Shown here piece by piece: positions 4,708 to 47,845 of a DNA stretch of 50,731 bases (positions within the stretch are counted from its first letter, which is position 1; each line of letters starts with the position of its first letter). The DNA is from a phage. Both the position numbers and the translations under genes were made by a program. The stretch lies in sequence record PZ445412.1, one strand, 5' to 3'. Below the pieces are notes generated by a model. That model was not told the origin of the DNA and searched no databases. It was given only the letters and a program-made list of their open reading frames with translations.

Positions 4708-5187
4708 ATGGCTCAGATTTCAGCAAGTTATCATGTTGCAATGGCTCGTGCCTTGCCTGGTCAAGTTTCTGACACTTCCGCGTATAACATCGACGGCGCT
4801 TGTGTTCTTGATGGTGATACCGGAACAACAATTTATGTTGGCGTTGGTGTTCAACATGGCGGAATTAGCGCAAGCGGTGAGAAATTAATTAAGGCTATGG
4901 CGGCGTCTGGTAATGCTTATGGTGTTGCTATTCGATCCAACTTCCAGACCACATCTAAAGATGGTCGCATGGTTTATGAGGCTGGTAGCGGAATTAACGT
5001 AATGACTAAAGGGCGCGTTTGGATGCTATCTGTAGAATCAGAAGCGCCAGCATTCAAAACACCTATCAGACTTGACAATTCAGGACAGGTTGATTTAATG
5101 TCTGGATTAATTGAAACTACTTGGATCGCAACTGGAGACTTTACGGAATTCCAAGGTCTAAAACTCGTTGAGGTTCAACTGGTATAA
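4708..5187 (+). CDS. head-module protein, paralog 1 (possible decoration/structural protein)
   Basis: RBS AGGAGA; shares motifs YNIDG and G(R)xW(V/M) with the next ORF; followed by hairpin terminator. Confidence 0.4.
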   Translation: MAQISASYHVAMARALPGQVSDTSAYNIDGACVLDGDTGTTIYVGVGVQHGGISASGEKLIKAMAASGNAYGVAIRSNFQTTSKDGRMVYEAGSGINVMTKGRVWMLSVESEAPAFKTPIRLDNSGQVDLMSGLIETTWIATGDFTEFQGLKLVEVQLV

Positions 5188-5191
5188 TAAT

Positions 5192-5217
5192 AAGGCCGGA
5201 TTATTCCGGCCTTTTAT
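5192..5217 (+). terminator. rho-independent terminator-like hairpin
   Basis: GGCCGGA-ttatt-CCGGCC followed by TTTTAT; same stem family as 1586-1612. Confidence 0.5.
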
Positions 5218-5230
5218 ATATGGTGGTTTT

Positions 5231-5671
5231 ATGTCTGATTACGGTTCTATAATAGGTATAGTTGAAAATGGGTGCTTGGTAGATTCAAGCCTTTATAATA
5301 TAGATGGCTCGCCAGTTATGGATGTTTCAGCCGTGATAGGTAAGGCCGTATGTGTTGATCGCATATCTTGCGGTTACAAAATAATCAGCCACAATTTTAA
5401 TGAAAACTCAAAGCATTACGGAATCGTTACGCGTGATTATATGGATTTTTGCAAAGAATATTACGACGCCGGAGATCCGGTTAACGTAATAACTCATGGT
5501 CGAATTTGGGTAATCACTCAGGACGAACAGGATATTCCATCGTATAAAGATCCTGTTTTTGTTAAAGACAATGGCTCTATATCAACAAGTGGATTTCCTA
5601 CCAGTTGGTTTTTTACTGGCGAATACGTAAGATATTCACACGGATATATTTTACTATCAGTTCAGTTGTAG
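5231..5671 (+). CDS. head-module protein, paralog 2
   Basis: Start MSDYGS at 5231 after terminator hairpin; paralogous to 4708-5187 (LYNIDGSPV, HGRIWVITQ). Confidence 0.4.
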   Translation: MSDYGSIIGIVENGCLVDSSLYNIDGSPVMDVSAVIGKAVCVDRISCGYKIISHNFNENSKHYGIVTRDYMDFCKEYYDAGDPVNVITHGRIWVITQDEQDIPSYKDPVFVKDNGSISTSGFPTSWFFTGEYVRYSHGYILLSVQL

Positions 5672-5760
5672 CGTGCTAACACAAAAAACACTTGAACGTT
5701 TAACAAAAAATGCTATATTAAAGCCGTTATTATGACGGCTTTTCTATGAGGGAAAATATT

Positions 5761-6735
5761 ATGTCTAAAGAAATGAAATATGATGAATTTGAAGCAAACG
5801 TGATCGCCAACCACATGCAGTTACGCGGCGCTAAAAACGACGCATCTGATATGGGTATTTGGACGGCTCAAGAGCTTCATAAAATTAAGGCTCAAGCCTA
5901 TGAAAAAGAATATCCGGCAGGTTCCGCACTGCGTGTATTCCCTGTAACGTCCGAGCTTTCTGATACGGATAAAACCTTTGAATATCAGACTTTCGACAAA
6001 GTAGGACACGCAAAAATCATCGCTGATTACACTGATGATCTGCCAACTGTTGACGCGCTGATGACTTCTGAATTCGGTAAAGTGTTCCGCCTTGGTAATG
6101 CGTTCCTGATTTCCATTGACGAAATCAAAGCAGGTCAACGCACTGGCAAGAGCCTTTCCACTCGCAAGGCCAACGCAGCACAGAATGCGCATGATCAGCT
6201 TGTAAATCACCTGGTTTTCAAAGGTTCTAAACCGCATAAAATTATCAGCGTGTTTGATCATCCAAACCTGACAACTATCAACTCCGCAGGTTGGAACAAC
6301 GCCGCAGGTACTGGTAAAAAGCCGGAAACCGCACAGGATGAATTAGAGCAAGCGATTGAAAAAATCGAAACGCTGACAAACGGGCAGCACCGCGCTAATA
6401 TGATCCTGATTCCGCCGTCAATGCGTAAAGTTCTGATGGTTCGTATGCCGGAAACCACCATGAGCTATCTTGATTATTTCAAGCAGCAGAATGGCGGTAT
6501 CACTATTGAATCCATTTCCGAGCTTGAAGATATCGACGGCGCAGGGACTAAAGCGGCACTGGTTTACGAAAAAGATCCGATGAACATGAGCATTGAGATT
6601 CCAGAAGCGTTTAACATGCTGACCGCGCAACCTAAAGACCTGCATTTCAAAGTGCCTTGCACCTCTAAATGCACTGGTCTGACGATTTACCGTCCGTTGA
6701 CGCTTGTTCTGATTAAAGGTCTTGTAGTAGGCTGA
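5761..6735 (+). CDS. major capsid protein
   Basis: 325-aa ORF, RBS GAGGG 8 nt before ATG at 5761; strong terminator downstream; position after scaffold. Confidence 0.7.
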   Translation: MSKEMKYDEFEANVIANHMQLRGAKNDASDMGIWTAQELHKIKAQAYEKEYPAGSALRVFPVTSELSDTDKTFEYQTFDKVGHAKIIADYTDDLPTVDALMTSEFGKVFRLGNAFLISIDEIKAGQRTGKSLSTRKANAAQNAHDQLVNHLVFKGSKPHKIISVFDHPNLTTINSAGWNNAAGTGKKPETAQDELEQAIEKIETLTNGQHRANMILIPPSMRKVLMVRMPETTMSYLDYFKQQNGGITIESISELEDIDGAGTKAALVYEKDPMNMSIEIPEAFNMLTAQPKDLHFKVPCTSKCTGLTIYRPLTLVLIKGLVVG

Positions 6736-15625: not shown

Positions 15626-18600
15626 ATGATCAAAAATATGATAACTGGCAGTAAGGGCGGTTCTTCAAAGCCTCATACACCTGTTGAAATGGAAGATAAC
15701 CTAATTTCAATTAACAGGATCAGAATTCTTTTAGCTGTTTCTGATGGTGAAGTTGATCCAGACTTTTCATTGAAAGATTTATATTTTGATGACGTTCCGG
15801 TTATGAATCAGGATGGTTCGCTAAACTTTCAGAATGTTAAGGCGGAATTCAGACCAGGGACGCAAACGCAGGATTATATTCAGGGGTTTACTGATACAGC
15901 CAGCGAAATTACAGTTGCTCGCGATCTGACAGCCGCAACTCCTTATATTATTTCTGTTACCAATAAAAACCTTTCTGCGATCCGTATTAAAATTTTAATG
16001 CCTCGCGGGGTTACTCAGGAAGATAACGGAGATCTAACAGGTGTTCGCGTTGAATATGCTGTTGATATGGCTGTTGATGGCGCTGAATATAAAGAGGTTT
16101 TGCATGATGTAATTGAAGGTAAAACAATGAGCGGTTACGACAGAAGCCGCCGAATTGATTTACCTGCTTTCAATGAGCGTGTTTTATTGCGCGTCCGTCG
16201 CCTTACAGATAGCACGTCAGCAAGGGTAACGGATCTGATTAAAATGCAAAGCTATGCGGAAGTTGTAGACGCTAAATTTCGTTACCCACTGACTGGTTTA
16301 GTATATGTTGAGTTTGACAGCGAATTATTCCCTAATGCGTTGCCGAATATCAGCATTAAGAAAAAATGGAAAATCATTAATGTTCCGTCAAATTATGATC
16401 CTATTTCCCGCACTTACTCAGGGTCATGGGATGGAACCTGGAAAAAGGCATGGAGTAATAACCCTGCTTTTGTTCTTTATGATTTGATTACCAATCAGCG
16501 TTACGGACTCGATCAAAGAGAGTTAGGCATCGCGCTTGATAAATGGAGCATTTACGAATGTGCGCAGTATTGCGATCAGATGGTTCCAGACGGTAAAGGC
16601 GGAACAGAGCCGCGCTATCTTTGCGACGTTGTGATCCAGAGCCAGGTAGAGGCGTATCAGCTTGTGCGTGATATTTGTTCAATATTCCGTGGCATGAGCT
16701 TTTGGAATGGTGAAAGCCTTTCAATCGTGATCGATAAGCCTCGCGATGCGTCATACATCTTTACTAATGACAACGTGGTTAACGGTGAATTCACTTACAC
16801 GTTTGCCAGCGAAAAAAGCATGTACACGCAATGCAACGTGACTTTCGACGACGAACAAAACATGTATCAACAGGATGTTGAGGGAGTTTTCGAAACTGAG
16901 GCGGCGTTACGCTTTGGCTATAACAGCACGTCAATTACTGCGATTGGATGCACACGACGCAGCGAAGCCAACCGCCGTGGACGCTGGATTTTAAAAACCA
17001 ACGTCAAGAGCACAACGGTAAACTTTGCTACAGGTCTGGAAGGTATGATCCCAACAGTAGGCGATGTGATTGTTGTATCGGATAACTTCTGGTCAAGCGC
17101 TCTAACGCTGAATCTATCAGGTCGAGTGATGGAGGTTAGCGGGTTGCAGGTGTTCACGCCGTTTAAGGTAGACGCAAGAGCAGGTGATCGCATTCTGGTA
17201 AATAAGCCGGATGGTAAGCCAGTTGGTCGAACCATTGCGCGTGTGAGTGATGACGGTAAAACGCTAACGCTAAACACGACATTTGGTTTTGACGTTCAGC
17301 CGGATACCATTTTTGCAATTGAGCGAACCGATATTGCACAGCAACGATATGTTGTAACCGGAATCACTAAGGGTGACGGTGATGAAGAATTTACCTACAA
17401 CATAACGGCTGTTGAATACGATCCGAACAAATACGATGAAATTGATTATGGCGTAAACATTGATGACCGTCCGACTTCAATCGTGCAGCCTGACATTTTG
17501 CCAGCACCGCAAAACGTCAAGATCGAATCTTATTCGCGAGTTGTCCAGGGCGCGAGCGTGGAAACAATGCATGTTTCATGGGATAAGGTTGAATATGCAA
17601 GCCTTTATGAAATGCAGTGGAGAAAAGACAATGGCAACTGGAACAACACGCCGCGCACAGCCAACAAGGAAACGGAAGTTGAAGGAATTTATGAGGGTAA
17701 CTATCACGTAAGGGTTAGATCTGTTGCAGCGAATGGTTCAGCGTCTGGATGGTCAGCAATTGTAAGCGCCGGATTAACTGGCAAGGTTGGCGAACCGGAA
17801 AGGCCAATTAACCTTACTGCGTCTGACAATGAAGTTTTCGGAATTCGCGTAAAATGGGGTATGCCAGAAGGAAGCGGAGACACGGCATATATTGAGTTGC
17901 ATCAAGCGCCAAACGGTTCTGATGGTCATCCTATTGTTGATGAAGCAACGCTCTTAACGCTGATACCGTTCCCGCAATATGAGTATTGGCATTCAATACT
18001 GCCAGCGGGTCATGTTGTCTGGTACAAGGCAAGGGCAGTTGACAAAATCGGTAACGTTTCTGATTGGACTGATTTTGTGCGCGGCATGGCTTCCGACGAT
18101 ACGAGCATTATCACGGATCATATTAAGGTCGATATTGAAAATTCTGATGGCTATAAGTGGTTGCAGGAAAACGCAATAAAGGCCAATGATAAGATCCACA
18201 GCACAGCGGAATCAGTGATTGAAAACGCATTAGCGAATGATAAAGATGTTCGACGTATGCGAGTTGAAAACGGAAAGCGTAAAGCGGAGTTCTTGCAATC
18301 GCTGAAACTCATTGCAGACGAAACAGAAGCAAGGGTAACGCAGGTCACTCAAATGAGTGTGCAATTTGACGAGAAATTAACGGCTCAAAATAGCGAATTG
18401 AGAGAGGTTATTGCTAACAGCACTGAAACCATTAGCCAAAGGATTGATCAGCTTACAGCTACGTTTGAGAGCGAAATTGATGGTGTTAAGCAGGATATCA
18501 AAGCACAGATAACTGATGTTAACCAGGCAATCACCAATGAATCGGAAGCGCGAGCATCAGCGGATAGGGCGTTATCAACTCAAATTGGTGATACCCAATC

Positions 18601-19402
18601 AGCGGTTAACCAGAAACTTGATTCATGGGTTAACGGTACAAGCGTTGGTGCGATGTACGGAGTTAAGTTGGGGATCAGGTATAACGGGCAGGAATATAGC
18701 GCAGGTATGGCTCTTTCTCTTGTCGCTGATGGTGGCGGAGTTAAATCACAATTCCTGTTTGATGCCGGAAGATTTGCGATCATCAACAATGCTCAAAGCG
18801 GAGCCTTTACATTGCCGTTTGTAGTTGAGAATAACCAGGTGTTTATCAATAGCTTGCTTGTGAAAAACGGCTCTATTGGTAACGCTCAGATAGCTAACTT
18901 CATTAACTCTAACAACTGGCAAAGCGGTGTTGCAGGTTGGGCGATTAACAAGGATGGTTATGCCGAATTCAACCAAGTAACTGTAAGGGGTGGCGTTTAT
19001 GCTTCATACGGATCATTCACTGGCAGCGTTTACGCGCAAGACGGATGGTTTAGGGGTACTGTTTACGCTGAAAAAATTGAGGGTGACGTTGCAAAGGCTG
19101 TTGTTCTTCCGTTTAACGGATCGGTTCACATTCCGGCGGTTAACTATAACAGACACCTTGTGATCCCTTATGTTGGTATTCACGGGTACACATATTCAGG
19201 TGGTACATGGGGCGGCGGTACTGTTTGGGTTGATTCAACATATGGTGGTCGCCTTGCTAACGTTCGGGCAACTGCAATGCATGGCGGATCAAGTGGTTAT
19301 GTTCTGTTGCCAGCAGGTAACGCAACCACGCTTTCATATGGTGGAGATCTAAACCACGCAAACGCAGTACCGATCTTAACAGTTCTGTTATTCAAAGCAT
19401 AA
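15626..19402 (+). CDS. central tail fibre / host specificity protein (lambda J-like)
   Basis: 1258-aa ORF, largest gene, downstream of K/I-like genes; strong terminator downstream. Confidence 0.85.
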   Translation: MIKNMITGSKGGSSKPHTPVEMEDNLISINRIRILLAVSDGEVDPDFSLKDLYFDDVPVMNQDGSLNFQNVKAEFRPGTQTQDYIQGFTDTASEITVARDLTAATPYIISVTNKNLSAIRIKILMPRGVTQEDNGDLTGVRVEYAVDMAVDGAEYKEVLHDVIEGKTMSGYDRSRRIDLPAFNERVLLRVRRLTDSTSARVTDLIKMQSYAEVVDAKFRYPLTGLVYVEFDSELFPNALPNISIKKKWKIINVPSNYDPISRTYSGSWDGTWKKAWSNNPAFVLYDLITNQRYGLDQRELGIALDKWSIYECAQYCDQMVPDGKGGTEPRYLCDVVIQSQVEAYQLVRDICSIFRGMSFWNGESLSIVIDKPRDASYIFTNDNVVNGEFTYTFASEKSMYTQCNVTFDDEQNMYQQDVEGVFETEAALRFGYNSTSITAIGCTRRSEANRRGRWILKTNVKSTTVNFATGLEGMIPTVGDVIVVSDNFWSSALTLNLSGRVMEVSGLQVFTPFKVDARAGDRILVNKPDGKPVGRTIARVSDDGKTLTLNTTFGFDVQPDTIFAIERTDIAQQRYVVTGITKGDGDEEFTYNITAVEYDPNKYDEIDYGVNIDDRPTSIVQPDILPAPQNVKIESYSRVVQGASVETMHVSWDKVEYASLYEMQWRKDNGNWNNTPRTANKETEVEGIYEGNYHVRVRSVAANGSASGWSAIVSAGLTGKVGEPERPINLTASDNEVFGIRVKWGMPEGSGDTAYIELHQAPNGSDGHPIVDEATLLTLIPFPQYEYWHSILPAGHVVWYKARAVDKIGNVSDWTDFVRGMASDDTSIITDHIKVDIENSDGYKWLQENAIKANDKIHSTAESVIENALANDKDVRRMRVENGKRKAEFLQSLKLIADETEARVTQVTQMSVQFDEKLTAQNSELREVIANSTETISQRIDQLTATFESEIDGVKQDIKAQITDVNQAITNESEARASADRALSTQIGDTQSAVNQKLDSWVNGTSVGAMYGVKLGIRYNGQEYSAGMALSLVADGGGVKSQFLFDAGRFAIINNAQSGAFTLPFVVENNQVFINSLLVKNGSIGNAQIANFINSNNWQSGVAGWAINKDGYAEFNQVTVRGGVYASYGSFTGSVYAQDGWFRGTVYAEKIEGDVAKAVVLPFNGSVHIPAVNYNRHLVIPYVGIHGYTYSGGTWGGGTVWVDSTYGGRLANVRATAMHGGSSGYVLLPAGNATTLSYGGDLNHANAVPILTVLLFKA

Positions 19403-19415
19403 AAGGAGTTAAATC

Positions 19416-19450
19416 AATGCCCTGGCTTAACGGTCGGGGCATTTTGTTTT
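19416..19450 (+). terminator. rho-independent terminator after J
   Basis: ATGCCC...GGGGCAT followed by TTTTGTTTTC. Confidence 0.6.
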
Positions 19451-19862
19451 CTTTTGTTCCACGATGTTCACAACCGAATCCGGCGTAAAATTGAAAACGT
19501 CTTGATAACAAAAAGAACAAATTAAATATCTATATAATACATACACTTAGAGTTTAATTATTATTATATATATCTATTTGTATTCTTCTTGTTTCCATTG
19601 TTCTCTATGGTTTGTGGTGGTTGTGTGTTTTGTATTGGTTGATGGTTATATATCACATGGTATGTATTTATATATGGTATGCGGCGTAAATGCGTAAACA
19701 ATGGAACGCAAAAACAACAATTAGTAAAATCATAAACTTACGATGTGATTTTGTTGTCAATGCTAGTTGTAAACGTATGCAAAACAAAAAGAACACTTAA
19801 AGGGTATTGACTACATGCAACAAAGACATATAATGCAGACATACCAACGAGAGGATGACCAA

Positions 19863-20918: not shown

Positions 20919-20938
20919 ATAGCACTTTTTGCTAAAAC
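20917..20938 (+). promoter_or_regulatory. conserved 22-bp box plus hairpin element
   Basis: AAATAGCACTTTTTGCTAAAAC; hairpin GATGCGTG-gtatacta-CACGCATC at 20949-20972. Confidence 0.6.
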
Positions 20939-28148: not shown

Positions 28149-28170
28149 GTAGCACTTTTTGCTAAAAAAC
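28149..28170 (+). promoter_or_regulatory. conserved 22-bp box upstream of helicase
   Basis: GTAGCACTTTTTGCTAAAAAAC followed by TATGATAT and a small hairpin. Confidence 0.5.
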
Positions 28171-30202: not shown

Positions 30203-30610
30203 ATGGTTAATGATAAAGGAGATTATCTGGAGTATTACGACAAATCAGATCCAGATACAAGAAAAGAAGAATCTCACCAGGTTGATTCTTACTCATGGCT
30301 TATATACGAATTCCCCATGTGGCTTGTTTGGCACACTAAAAACGAAGGGAAGAAAACCATTGGCACAGCAGTAAAAGATCAGCAAGCAGGTGTGAAAAAG
30401 GGAGTAAGCGACATTCTAATCCTGACTGGTTTTATTGGCTGCAAATATTCATTCATTGCCATTGAGCTTAAAAAAGCCAACAAGAAAGGCACAAAAGTAA
30501 GCAAGGAACAAAAGGAATTCTTACGTCGCGTTAGGGAATGCGGAGGATTTGCCGCCGTATGCTATGGTGTAGAGCAAGTAAAATTGGCTATCGCAGACGC
30601 TACAAAATAG
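30203..30610 (+). CDS. VRR-NUC domain nuclease
   Basis: GVSDILIL...IAIELKK pattern consistent with the VRR-NUC D...E.K core; follows helicase. Confidence 0.5.
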   Translation: MVNDKGDYLEYYDKSDPDTRKEESHQVDSYSWLIYEFPMWLVWHTKNEGKKTIGTAVKDQQAGVKKGVSDILILTGFIGCKYSFIAIELKKANKKGTKVSKEQKEFLRRVRECGGFAAVCYGVEQVKLAIADATK

Positions 30611-30626
30611 CACTTTTTGTTAAAAC
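30605..30626 (+). promoter_or_regulatory. conserved 22-bp box plus hairpin element
   Basis: AAATAGCACTTTTTGTTAAAAC; hairpin GGCGCA-acggaa-TGCGCC; CATAATGCAC; AGAACGAAACGGAG. Confidence 0.6.
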
Positions 30627-30681
30627 AGGCGCAACGGAATGCGCCATAATGCACCCATCAGAACGAAACGGAGAATTAACC

Positions 30682-30960
30682 ATGAAAAAGATGTTATCAG
30701 TAGTTGCTTTATCACTTGCCCTTGTCGGTTGCATGGATAAACCCAAAACATATATTTGCGGAAATGAAGCGTTTGAGGTTACAAGCGACTATATGAAAGT
30801 TGTGCAAGGCAAAAGCACAGGCGTTGTAATGGATAATATCAGCAAAAATCAATATAAGTTGTTTACGCCAATTGGAACGGCTTATTACACTGTTAACGAT
30901 AGCACCATTGATATTAAAGTTGGCGTTTATCAGCACACTCTAACTTGCGAGGTAAAATAA
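30682..30960 (+). CDS. lipoprotein (candidate Cor-like superinfection exclusion protein)
   Basis: Signal peptide with lipobox LALVGC; start MKKML at 30682 after box/hairpin element. Confidence 0.55.
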   Translation: MKKMLSVVALSLALVGCMDKPKTYICGNEAFEVTSDYMKVVQGKSTGVVMDNISKNQYKLFTPIGTAYYTVNDSTIDIKVGVYQHTLTCEVK

Positions 30961-30961
30961 A

Positions 30962-31699
30962 ATGGCTAAGGATTTTCAGGACAAAGCAACCATTGATACT
31001 TTTGAGCCGGAAATGGATTTTCATGAATTGCAACACGGCAGATATTCAGATATTGCGTTGCGTTCAGGTGGTCATTATCAGCCAGTTAGAGAAAACCCAA
31101 TGTTCAAGGTTAGCGGCAACCGTTACGCCGGAAGTAAGACACCTGATGTTGTGCGTGATTTGTGGGAAACGCCAGATGAAATTGTAGAATATTTGGCTGA
31201 ACGTTACGGCAAATACGATCTTGATGCAGCCGCAAGCGAAAACAACAAGAAATGCGATAAGTTTTACAGCAAGGAAACAAACTGCTTAAAACGTTGGTGG
31301 GGTAGCAATAAGCATGTTTGGCTCAATCCACCATACAGCAATCCAGATCCGTTTGTGTTAAAAGCAATTGAGCAGATGGAACACGGAAACCAGATTGATA
31401 TTTTACTTCCGGCTGACAACTCAACAGCATGGTTTAGCGATGCACAAAAACACGCGGCTGAAATTATCTGGATCACTGGCGAAACATGGGAAGAAGAAGG
31501 AAAACAATATTCCCGCACTGGTCGAGTATCGTTTATTTCTGGAATGACAGGTGAACCAGTTAGCGGAAACAATAAAGGAAGCGTGATTTTTATCATGCGA
31601 CAACTGAAAGAAGGTGAGCAACAACAAACTCATTATGTGCCAATTAGTGAAATTTGCCCTTCTGTTGAGAACAAACGCACAAAAGCGCGGAGTATTTAA
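30962..31699 (+). CDS. dam: DNA N6-adenine methyltransferase (phage Dam type)
   Basis: Catalytic NPPY motif (WLNPPYSNPDP) and upstream DLDAAAS motif. Confidence 0.75.
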   Translation: MAKDFQDKATIDTFEPEMDFHELQHGRYSDIALRSGGHYQPVRENPMFKVSGNRYAGSKTPDVVRDLWETPDEIVEYLAERYGKYDLDAAASENNKKCDKFYSKETNCLKRWWGSNKHVWLNPPYSNPDPFVLKAIEQMEHGNQIDILLPADNSTAWFSDAQKHAAEIIWITGETWEEEGKQYSRTGRVSFISGMTGEPVSGNNKGSVIFIMRQLKEGEQQQTHYVPISEICPSVENKRTKARSI

Positions 31700-31968: not shown

Positions 31969-31985
31969 CACTTTTTGTTAAAAAT
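31963..31985 (+). promoter_or_regulatory. conserved 22-bp box plus hairpin element
   Basis: Box then hairpin TGCCCC-gcgaaagt-GGGGCA, ATAATCA, TCAACGAAAC. Confidence 0.6.
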
Positions 31986-35152: not shown

Positions 35153-35176
35153 GTTTTTTGACAAAAAGTGCTATTC
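35153..35176 (-). promoter_or_regulatory. conserved box plus hairpin element (minus orientation)
   Basis: Reverse complement GAATAGCACTTTTTGTCAAAAAAC; hairpin CCCGAT-ctcgc-ATCGGG; TATATT; TCGAAACGAAACGAAC. Confidence 0.6.
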
Positions 35177-37997: not shown

Positions 37998-38019
37998 GTT
38001 TTAACAAAAAGTGCTATTT
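37998..38019 (-). promoter_or_regulatory. conserved 22-bp box plus hairpin element
   Basis: Reverse complement AAATAGCACTTTTTGTTAAAAC; hairpin GCCGGAT-ctaga-ATCCGGC; CATAATGCAC; TCGAAAC. Confidence 0.6.
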
Positions 38020-38816: not shown

Positions 38817-39053
38817 TTAGAATGGGAAACAGCGCTTGCAAGATGGATCGAAGTTACAACCGCAATCATTGATTATTGCATTAGGATCAGCAAGCATCAC
38901 GCTACTTTCTTGATCCATATCCATAGCGCCTAATGCGTCATCAAGCGTTATTTCAAGATAGGCAACTTTGAGCGCCCACTCTTTGTTAAGTCCAGCCGCC
39001 TCCGCTTCATGTAGGCGAGCAAAGAAAGCATCTTGAACCATGATTAACTCCAT
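38817..39053 (-). CDS. hypothetical protein
   Basis: 78-aa ORF in leftward operon. Confidence 0.4.
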   Translation of the reverse strand: MELIMVQDAFFARLHEAEAAGLNKEWALKVAYLEITLDDALGAMDMDQESSVMLADPNAIINDCGCNFDPSCKRCFPF

Positions 39054-40044: not shown

Positions 40045-40067
40045 CGCTTTTAACAAAAAGTGCTATT
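40045..40067 (-). promoter_or_regulatory. conserved 22-bp box element
   Basis: Box then GGCATAATACA and TCATCGAAACGAACCGGAG leader. Confidence 0.55.
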
Positions 40068-40713: not shown

Positions 40714-40768
40714 CGTTGATTCTCCTGATTGGTTGATGCGTGTATTATGCCGGAATTAGATCCGGCAC

Positions 40769-40790
40769 GTTTAACAAAAAGTGCTATTTC
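40769..40790 (-). promoter_or_regulatory. conserved 22-bp box plus hairpin element
   Basis: Box; hairpin GTGCCGGA-tctaat-TCCGGCAC; ATAATACACGCATCAACCAATCAGGAG. Confidence 0.6.
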
Positions 40791-41628: not shown

Positions 41629-41650
41629 GTTTTAACAAAAAGTGCTATTC
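41629..41650 (-). promoter_or_regulatory. conserved 22-bp box, first element of leftward operon
   Basis: Box followed by CCAATCAG, CACGAATTGCTA and TCATCGAAACGAATTGAGG. Confidence 0.55.
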
Positions 41651-43405: not shown

Positions 43406-43427
43406 AAATAGCACTTTTTGTTAAAAC
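43406..43427 (+). promoter_or_regulatory. conserved 22-bp box plus hairpin element
   Basis: Box; hairpin GGGGT...ACCCC enclosing TTGACATAATT; TCGAAACGAAACGAGG. Confidence 0.6.
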
Positions 43428-45380: not shown

Positions 45381-45427
45381 CACTTTTTGCTAAAACTTGC
45401 TAAGGCACATTTGATAAAGTGTGCCTT
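45375..45427 (+). promoter_or_regulatory. conserved box plus class-B hairpin
   Basis: Box; hairpin AAGGCACA-tttgataaag-TGTGCCTT. Confidence 0.6.
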
Positions 45428-47799: not shown

Positions 47800-47845
47800 C
47801 ACTTTTTGTTAAAACTTCCGCGAGGACATTTGTTAAAGTGTCCTC
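47794..47845 (+). promoter_or_regulatory. conserved box plus class-B hairpin
   Basis: Box; hairpin GAGGACA-tttgttaaag-TGTCCTC. Confidence 0.6.

Follow-up and report, generated by a model that had tools for sequence, protein, structure and literature searches.

Gene bas08_0036 and its surroundings

The stretch of DNA analyzed here (PZ445412.1; 50,731 nucleotides; hereafter the window) contains all of the genome of a Tlsvirus (Drexlerviridae, Tempevirinae), namely Escherichia phage DanielBernoulli (Bas08), and is rotated by 536 nt relative to the record MZ501059.1. This work concerns bas08_0036 (30682..30960, + strand), a gene for a 92-aa protein that is annotated as 'hypothetical protein' in the phage DanielBernoulli record and is considered below as a candidate superinfection-exclusion lipoprotein. 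Its product (MKKMLSVVALSLALVGC-MDKPKTYICGNE...TLTCEVK) begins, as read from the sequence, with the lipoprotein signal peptide MKKMLSVVALSLALVG and a lipid-modified Cys17 (30682..30732, + strand). As expected of a signal peptidase II substrate, the n-region of the signal peptide is positively charged, its core is hydrophobic, and the lipobox (L-V-G-C) is canonical. The mature part begins MDKPK after MKKMLSVVALSLALVGC, and the mature domain (30733..30960, + strand; 75 aa plus the stop codon) belongs to PHROG 7420 and is predicted to form an 8-stranded beta-barrel. Under the Lol rule of E. coli, lipoproteins without Asp at position +2 are sorted to the outer membrane. Because the +2 residue of this protein is Met and not the Asp retention signal, outer-membrane sorting is expected. 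A Shine-Dalgarno sequence (GGAG; 30670..30673, + strand) can be read directly 8 nt before the ATG. In a six-frame scan of the window, only two open reading frames (ORFs) with a lipobox were found, namely bas08_0036 and the unimolecular spanin (u-spanin) gene, which leaves bas08_0036 as the sole non-lysis lipoprotein gene of the genome. An in-frame ATG further upstream gives a 140-aa ORF (30538-30960) that crosses the non-coding box and hairpin described below. Over-long starts are found in the TLS protein A5PJ18 (BFVD, 140 aa) and in cluster P0002 (133 aa, 107 member sequences), where they conceal the signal peptide.

The gene is flanked on the left by a VRR-NUC nuclease gene (30203..30610, + strand; Pfam PF08774, E 2.5e-8) and on the right by a gene for a Dam-type N6-adenine methyltransferase (30962..31699, + strand; Pfam PF05869, E 1.1e-62). 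Both are the conserved flanks of a slot with variable content. A preliminary description of the window had placed a 92-aa lipoprotein with a classic lipobox between these two genes, with a box/hairpin element of its own upstream. The lipoprotein (LVGC, Cys17 and the exact ORF coordinates) was confirmed, as was its inserted position, given that in T1 the VRR-NUC and dam genes are only 64-67 nt apart. The box and the hairpin are also real, but they are part of a shared leader, being one of 15 such boxes in the window and preceding dam in T1.

The box CACTTTTTGTTAAAAC (30611..30626, + strand) lies directly after the VRR-NUC stop codon and marks the left boundary of the slot. It is followed by the hairpin GGCGCA-ACGGAA-TGCGCC (30628..30645, + strand; read directly and also flagged as an inverted repeat), the -10-like hexamer CATAAT (30645..30650, + strand) and a conserved leader. 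With the AATAG before it, which includes the VRR-NUC stop codon, the box makes up the 21-nt direct repeat found in T1-like phages; for TLS this repeat was described as aaATAGCACnnnTTGnTAAAA, and only as a direct repeat (PMC11447400). The 15 copies of the box in the window (1.2 expected) all point along the direction of transcription, at 16-31, 5697-5712, 20923-20938, 28153-28168, 30611-30626, 31969-31984, 35155-35170, 37998-38013, 38977-38992, 40047-40062, 40768-40783, 41629-41644, 43412-43427, 45381-45396 and 47800-47815. AATAG-CACTTTTTGTTAAAAC nearly always begins at the TAG stop codon of the upstream gene, and the usual order on its 3' side is a hairpin of variable sequence, (c)ATAAT, CATCGAAACGAA and the ribosome-binding site. 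The hairpin at most other copies occupies the same place with a different sequence. The box at the VRR-NUC junction is also present in T1, Weberviruses and others, and in T1 the same leader directly precedes dam. The box/hairpin is a general leader of early and middle units and is not specific to bas08_0036.

Two conventional assignments for this leader were rejected. A sigma-70 promoter is disfavored by the 22-nt spacing between TTGTTA and CATAAT, and an intrinsic terminator by the lack of a T-run after the hairpin. The hairpin at 30628-30645 has a 6-bp stem in the centroid fold, and its stability does not differ significantly from that of shuffled sequence (z -0.85). RNAalifold detected no covariation over the box-associated hairpins because these are out of register. 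The repeated box resembles either an activator-dependent promoter or a cassette boundary. Downstream, the dam Shine-Dalgarno sequence (GAGG) can be read within the last lipoprotein codons (30949..30964, + strand, including the dam ATG at 30962), and this ATG is 1 nt after the bas08_0036 stop codon; these positions suggest co-transcription of the two genes and possible translational coupling. The box scan of the window found no box between bas08_0036 and dam, and the two genes therefore appear to form one unit.

A variable slot between the VRR-NUC and dam genes

For a survey of the slot, primase-centered loci spanning both the J tip and the VRR-NUC/Dam interval were collected from IMG/VR and GenBank, giving 59 distinct loci with both. 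The edges of the slot are constant, with the leader on the left and the dam start on the right. The slot measures 53-79 nt in T1 and 11 other loci; it is empty in 12 loci that include the end of J (13 counting L059, in which J is off-locus). In the other loci, the contents include the PHROG 7420 family lipoprotein, an unrelated 75-aa lipoprotein, a 34-aa membrane peptide, and signal-anchored or secreted proteins. All identified occupants are targeted to the envelope except for the 79-aa ORF of L043, which has no signal peptide; no ORF was found in the slots of L090 and L101. Even among near-identical Weberviruses (flanks 98-100%), the slot may hold family allele A, B or C, the 75-aa lipoprotein, or the 34-aa peptide. 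The occupants of the slots of L008, L026, L032, L037 and L038 and of L048, L050 and L061 comprise the 34-aa membrane peptide (MKNFLWVIASIGFGIVATGFGLWVITLAGHFKGF), a secreted protein of 109 aa, and signal-anchored paralogs of ~150 aa that share two conserved Cys. No PHROG matches any of these peptides and proteins.

The 75-aa slot lipoprotein (L028, L031 and L036) is 59% identical to Rtp45 (E 2e-29), including its disulfide motif, and 59% identical to the lipoprotein encoded beside the receptor-binding protein (RBP) gene of ETEP102 (E 4e-30). All three proteins belong to PHROG 4281, and the Weberviruses that have the 75-aa lipoprotein in the slot also carry a 318-aa RBP similar to Rtp44. Because this occupant is a homolog of Rtp45, which is a demonstrated exclusion lipoprotein, the sequence comparison indicates that some phages indeed have a bona fide exclusion gene in the slot. 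The positional equivalence with Rtp45 supports a protein that works like Rtp45, and not membership of the Rtp45 type.

The lipoprotein alleles differ strongly between otherwise similar phages. Between the Weberviruses GH-K3 and NJS1, the lipoproteins are 69.6% identical, compared with 98-100% for the helicase, VRR-NUC, Dam and downstream proteins (98.4% for Dam); VRR-NUC is 98.5% identical between Weberviruses with different slot contents. The nucleotide divergence is limited to the codons of the mature domain (64-80% identity vs 96-100% in the flanks). The synonymous divergence (dS) of the lipoprotein gene is 0.77, as opposed to 0.03-0.15 in the flanks, and the ratio of nonsynonymous to synonymous substitution rates (dN/dS) is 0.28. 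In-situ positive selection was rejected as the cause of this divergence, given that dS is also high and dN/dS is 0.28; the same values point to old alleles exchanged by recombination. Exchange between genera is also indicated, because the lipoproteins of Bas08 and Webervirus HelplessSquare (L002, 16001-16279) are 77% identical in full and 80% in the mature part, more alike than any flanking protein (every one 55-64%). Such allele behavior is typical of host-interaction genes.

Distribution and conservation of the family

By tblastn, the family was found in 232-234 phage records, including ~47 Tlsvirus records (from Escherichia, Salmonella and Citrobacter; identity at least 80%), ~170 records of Klebsiella Weberviruses (identity 62-78%) and 14 records of ETEP102-like coliphages (identity 34%). 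The gene is always located between the VRR-NUC and dam genes. The residues G16 and C17 are invariant in alignments of 31 and 18 diverse homologs, and Cys17, Cys26 and Cys89 are invariant across the family alignments. The mature part has a dN/dS of 0.14-0.28 and is under purifying selection. Residue +2 is Met in Bas08 and Ser, Gly or Ala in most relatives. A Cys-Asp-Asn subtype (the slots of L051, L052 and L055, and proteins P0040 and P0044) differs from all other members in this respect.

The full-length protein (residues 1-92) matches PHROG 7420 with an E value of 2.8e-53, and the mature part alone with 1.6e-42. This is the only PHROG that matches the mature domain, and it is annotated as function unknown. 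The Pfam model LPAM_1 matches 8 of 18 family members; no Pfam or NCBIfam match was found for the bas08_0036 family itself. An exhaustive hidden Markov model (HMM) search of 1.8 billion cluster representatives gave only 12 matches. Ten of them are lipoproteins of ~90 aa. Of these, eight are new (one is over-long at 115 aa), whereas P0025 and P0041, which is nearly identical to it, had been part of the query alignment or were its twin. The further ~90-aa lipoproteins share a signature consisting of the lipobox, Y-x-C-G, G-x-A and C-[KE]-V, and P0044 is the one that reads through to 115 aa. The remaining two matches (P0042 and P0045), large proteins rich in repeats and with numerous spurious Pfam hits, were discarded.

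Several database labels deserve caution. One ortholog is labeled 'Cor superinfection exclusion protein' in one record, and another record has 'putative adhesin'; both labels are unsupported. Moreover, T1-like genomes are deposited under unlikely hosts, including Streptococcus phage MBBL140 (OR786094.1), ~19 records named 'Campylobacter phage' (e.g., A131 and A14a) and one Stenotrophomonas record. Contamination with coliphages or mislabeling probably accounts for these records.

Predicted structure of the mature domain

An AlphaFold2 model based on 31 homologs has a predicted local distance difference test score (pLDDT) of ~96 for residues 21-92, which form eight beta-strands. In this predicted fold, the conserved Cys26 is on the first strand and Cys89 on the last, such that a Cys26-Cys89 disulfide probably clamps the barrel. 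Because eight strands in ~75 residues presumably make the barrel too compact for a ligand pocket, the model suggests a protein-binding module.

The nearest folds are the MliC/PliC/PhiA lysozyme inhibitors, and the resemblance is weak. Foldseek ranked Brucella PhiA first (probability 0.99, template modeling (TM) score 0.5, E 0.1), and the scores are marginal and shared with unrelated barrels. A search of the family profile against the sequences of solved structures returned only chance matches (E at least 0.59), and a fold search of BFVD returned only the family itself. Membership of the MliC/PliC family (PF09864) was rejected: hhalign gave a probability of 2.9% against a mini-alignment of solved MliC/PliC proteins, none of 18 family members matched PF09864, and the SxSGAxY and YxxxTKG lysozyme-contact motifs are absent from the family alignment.

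J architecture, receptor-binding loci and exclusion genes

In T1-like phages, a locus downstream of the tail tip gene J encodes an RBP and its cognate exclusion protein (PMC8594841). The TolC-dependent phages, including Bas08, have no RBP locus downstream of J, and their J has a C-terminal receptor-binding extension (Maffei et al., PMC8594841); the target receptor of Bas08 is TolC (PMC8594841). In the window, the J-like tail tip protein gene (15626-19402; 1258 aa) ends with this extension, the fused receptor-binding domain for TolC (18926..19402, + strand; PMC8594841 and sequence comparison), which is shared only with Tlsvirus loci (93-98%). The 460-bp gap after J (19403..19862) is the site of the RBP and exclusion lipoprotein genes in other Drexlerviridae. 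No credible ORF and no lipobox ORF was found in this gap.

Across the surveyed loci, the family lipoprotein and the architecture of J are associated. Among loci with the family lipoprotein, 30 have a long J with a fused receptor domain and four have a short J with a separate RBP locus. Loci with any other slot content are distributed in the opposite way (five long J, 20 short J). Within Webervirus only, the corresponding counts are 22/1 vs 2/6 (p 2.5e-4), with near-identical backbones and shared ancestry uncorrected. The presence of a lipoprotein gene beside J (i.e., within 1.4 kb after J) also differs with the slot content: such a gene was found in none of 31 long-J loci with the family, in nine of 12 loci with an empty slot, and in none of three loci with an Rtp45-like slot gene. 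In L048, the nearest non-Tlsvirus relative of Bas08 (helicase 85%), the J tip and the slot content are both different. A one-to-one co-variation of lipoprotein alleles with J tip or RBP types was also tested for, and was not found.

Some loci have unusual arrangements at this site. NJS1 (L006) has an unannotated 318-aa ORF (5148-6104, + strand) directly after a short J; this ORF is a homolog of Rtp44 (33% identity, E 3e-41), which is an LptD-binding RBP. The slot of NJS1 contains family allele C, and the phage lacks an Rtp45-like gene. In L101, whose slot has no ORF, an 83-aa lipoprotein (MKNLLVLIAALSLIGCSTVREDGVCATYAYGACMLKWQNG...) is encoded on the - strand within 1.4 kb after a long J. A related motif, CVTYAYGSCM, is present in T1-like L068. 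The L101 protein seems to represent yet another lipoprotein class of the RBP locus.

Proposed function and alternative explanations

The reading with the best support, which we put at about even odds, is that bas08_0036 encodes a structurally distinct, new lipoprotein for superinfection exclusion or lytic conversion at the envelope. The recombination-prone slot would then be functionally equivalent to the RBP-locus exclusion gene of other T1-like phages. The preliminary description had proposed a receptor-blocking superinfection-exclusion factor of the Cor type. The exclusion part of this proposal gained real, if indirect, support from the Rtp45 homolog in the slot and from the presence of the family almost only where an exclusion gene beside an RBP locus is absent, and the Cor-type part did not stand. 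Receptor blocking was partly contradicted, as the alleles do not correspond one-to-one with receptor-binding domains and the ETEP102-like phages carry an Rtp45-type gene as well.

The protein is probably expressed early from the box/hairpin leader that serves the replication operon, jointly with dam, and a six-residue tether would anchor the lipidated barrel to the periplasmic leaflet of the outer membrane. The accessory VRR-NUC/dam slot is refilled by recombination with different envelope proteins. If bas08_0036 acts in exclusion, the infected cell and its debris would become refractory to DanielBernoulli and other phages with a receptor-binding domain on J. The most likely mechanism would be binding at the periplasmic rim of TolC, as Llp does on FhuA and Rtp45 on LptDE, although TolC as the masked receptor is a tentative assignment by analogy that we regard as rather doubtful. 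A broader version is similarly speculative and about as doubtful to us. In this version, PHROG 7420 would comprise exclusion lipoproteins of a new structural class, directed at receptors other than TonB-dependent transporters, and would block phages with a J-fused receptor-binding domain; the Bas08 protein would dock on the TolC trimer from the periplasm, and the Webervirus alleles on other channels such as OmpK36. Docking on TolC might also perturb TolC-dependent efflux or colicin uptake.

A number of observations weigh against an exclusion function, and in particular against receptor masking. The association with J architecture (odds ratio 30, Fisher p 1.2e-7) is uncorrected for shared ancestry and perhaps reflects 4-8 independent events. 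The Webervirus J types R1 and R2 occur with alleles A, B and C, and allele A vs B mostly tracks the Webervirus backbone clade. The loci L051, L053 and L106 have one J tip type (90-98%) and lipoproteins that are only 31-47% identical; conversely, Bas08, with its TolC tip, and HelplessSquare, with an unrelated tip, have mature lipoproteins that are 80% identical. The family is present both in GH-K3 and in NJS1, which reportedly use OmpC and FepA, respectively (as cited in PMC10051899). The ETEP102-like phages have an Rtp45-type gene together with a family member (34% identity), and NJS1 and L014 have RBP loci and carry the family too. The L051/P0040 subtype has Asp at +2 and Asn at +3, the inner-membrane retention signal of E. 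coli. In L024 (on the same contig as L086), allele A is split by an internal stop into 31 aa and 55 aa; the copy could be a natural pseudogene, or the stop could stem from a sequencing error. Masking of TolC by a periplasmic lipoprotein also appears difficult, as such a protein cannot reach the lumen from outside the helical barrel. Finally, the protein resembles none of Cor, Llp and Rtp45 in sequence or fold, and the literature library that was searched, including the TLS reannotation with its supplements and the BASEL, KanT1 and Webervirus papers, yielded no study of bas08_0036.

Alternatively, the slot may be a well-expressed insertion site and the lipoprotein an envelope 'moron' with a role other than exclusion, such as in outer-membrane stability, vesicles, colicin or conjugation sensitivity, or lysis timing. 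Such a role would account for the very different proteins that the slot takes (the 34-aa peptide, the ~150-aa paralogs and the secreted 109-aa protein), the lack of any slot occupant in T1 and many others, and the one possible natural pseudogene (the L024 internal stop). However, one slot occupant is an Rtp45 ortholog, and the slot content correlates with a host-recognition module ~10 kb away despite recombination between the two, so we consider this explanation unlikely. Exclusion could also act after adsorption, by blocking a periplasmic step common to J-fused phages, such as penetration by the tail tip or tape measure, or channel formation. The family tracks J architecture and not any particular receptor-binding domain, similar alleles occur with unrelated J tips, and a post-adsorption role would fit the finding that ETEP102-like phages also carry a receptor blocker of the Rtp45 type, and would tolerate a subtype retained in the inner membrane. 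Against this, no lipoprotein with such a fold is known to act in this way, contact with tail proteins is hypothetical, and the short-J phages NJS1 and L014 carry the family too; we judge this possibility improbable.

A further possibility is a periplasmic inhibitor of peptidoglycan hydrolases that works like MliC, PliC and PhiA and would either blunt the wall degradation by incoming tails or restrain the phage's own signal-arrest-release (SAR) endolysin until lysis. Such an inhibitor appears quite improbable. As for a chance ORF or a decaying remnant, it is true that one contig has an internal stop and that the function is unassigned. The occurrence in 234 phage records from at least three lineages, the invariant cysteines, the dN/dS of 0.14-0.28, the confident predicted fold and the good Shine-Dalgarno sequence make this explanation extremely unlikely.

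Implications for TolC-dependent phages

TolC-dependent phages, among them TLS, U136B and DanielBernoulli, are of interest in research on 'phage steering', which is directed against efflux-mediated antibiotic resistance. To our knowledge, no exclusion factor is known for TolC-dependent phages. If the proposed exclusion function is true, bas08_0036 would add a new fold to those that mask receptors and might be a natural TolC ligand, and it would explain how J-fused phages escape self-inactivation on debris. The slot, read together with the J/RBP locus, could then be used for predicting cross-resistance among ~230 sequenced phages of Klebsiella, Escherichia, Salmonella and Citrobacter that are used in therapy cocktails. 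If bas08_0036 is not an exclusion factor, the strongly non-random pattern of slot contents still requires an explanation.

Comparison with known lipoproteins

Among known proteins, Cor (T1, phi80, N15 and HK022; PHROG 1119; FhuA-blocking) is similar to the bas08_0036 product in being a small outer-membrane lipoprotein of T1-like phages and is presumed to be an analog. Homology to Cor, as implied by the preliminary label, was rejected. The match to PHROG 1119 (E 4.9e-4) spans residues 1-43 and is gone without the signal peptide, which identifies it as a signal-peptide artifact; BLASTP gave no alignment with T1 Cor, and the predicted 8-stranded barrel is different. The two also differ in genomic context and target. 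In T1, cor is beside the RBP locus and the slot is empty, whereas bas08_0036 is in the replication module, ~10-11 kb from J; Cor blocks FhuA, whereas Bas08 uses TolC and not FhuA.

The MliC/PliC/PhiA proteins (PF09864) may resemble the predicted bas08_0036 product as lipoprotein or periplasmic 8-stranded barrels with Cys on the first and last strands, and they differ in that the bas08_0036 family has neither their profile similarity nor their functional motifs. T5 Llp (PDB 8A60) is an early-expressed lipoprotein with a disulfide. It blocks FhuA from the periplasmic side by reverse allostery (PMC9586334, as cited in 10.1101/2025.07.07.663478). No fold similarity to the solved Llp structure was found, and Llp serves as the proposed working model for bas08_0036.

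Rtp45 (PHROG 4281), the exclusion lipoprotein of phage Rtp, was located by cryo-electron microscopy at the periplasmic side of LptDE (PDB 9RPS; 10.1101/2025.07.07.663478), where its binding distorts LptDE loops needed by the RBP (10.1101/2025.07.07.663478). Published AlphaFold3 predictions for complexes of LptDE with its exclusion proteins turned out to be incorrect (10.1101/2025.07.07.663478). BLASTP gave no alignment between bas08_0036 and Rtp45, and the GWCAT...C disulfide motif is not found in bas08_0036. Rtp45 has a mature part of ~57 aa whose long hairpin reaches into the lumen of LptD, whereas the bas08_0036 product is predicted to be a closed barrel of 75 aa. Moreover, the rtp45 gene adjoins the RBP gene rtp44 in Rtp and is not in the replication module. 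Nevertheless, both are small lipoproteins of T1-like phages with an internal disulfide (predicted for bas08_0036), and an Rtp45 ortholog holds the same VRR-NUC/Dam slot in some Weberviruses, with a distribution complementary to that of the bas08_0036 family.

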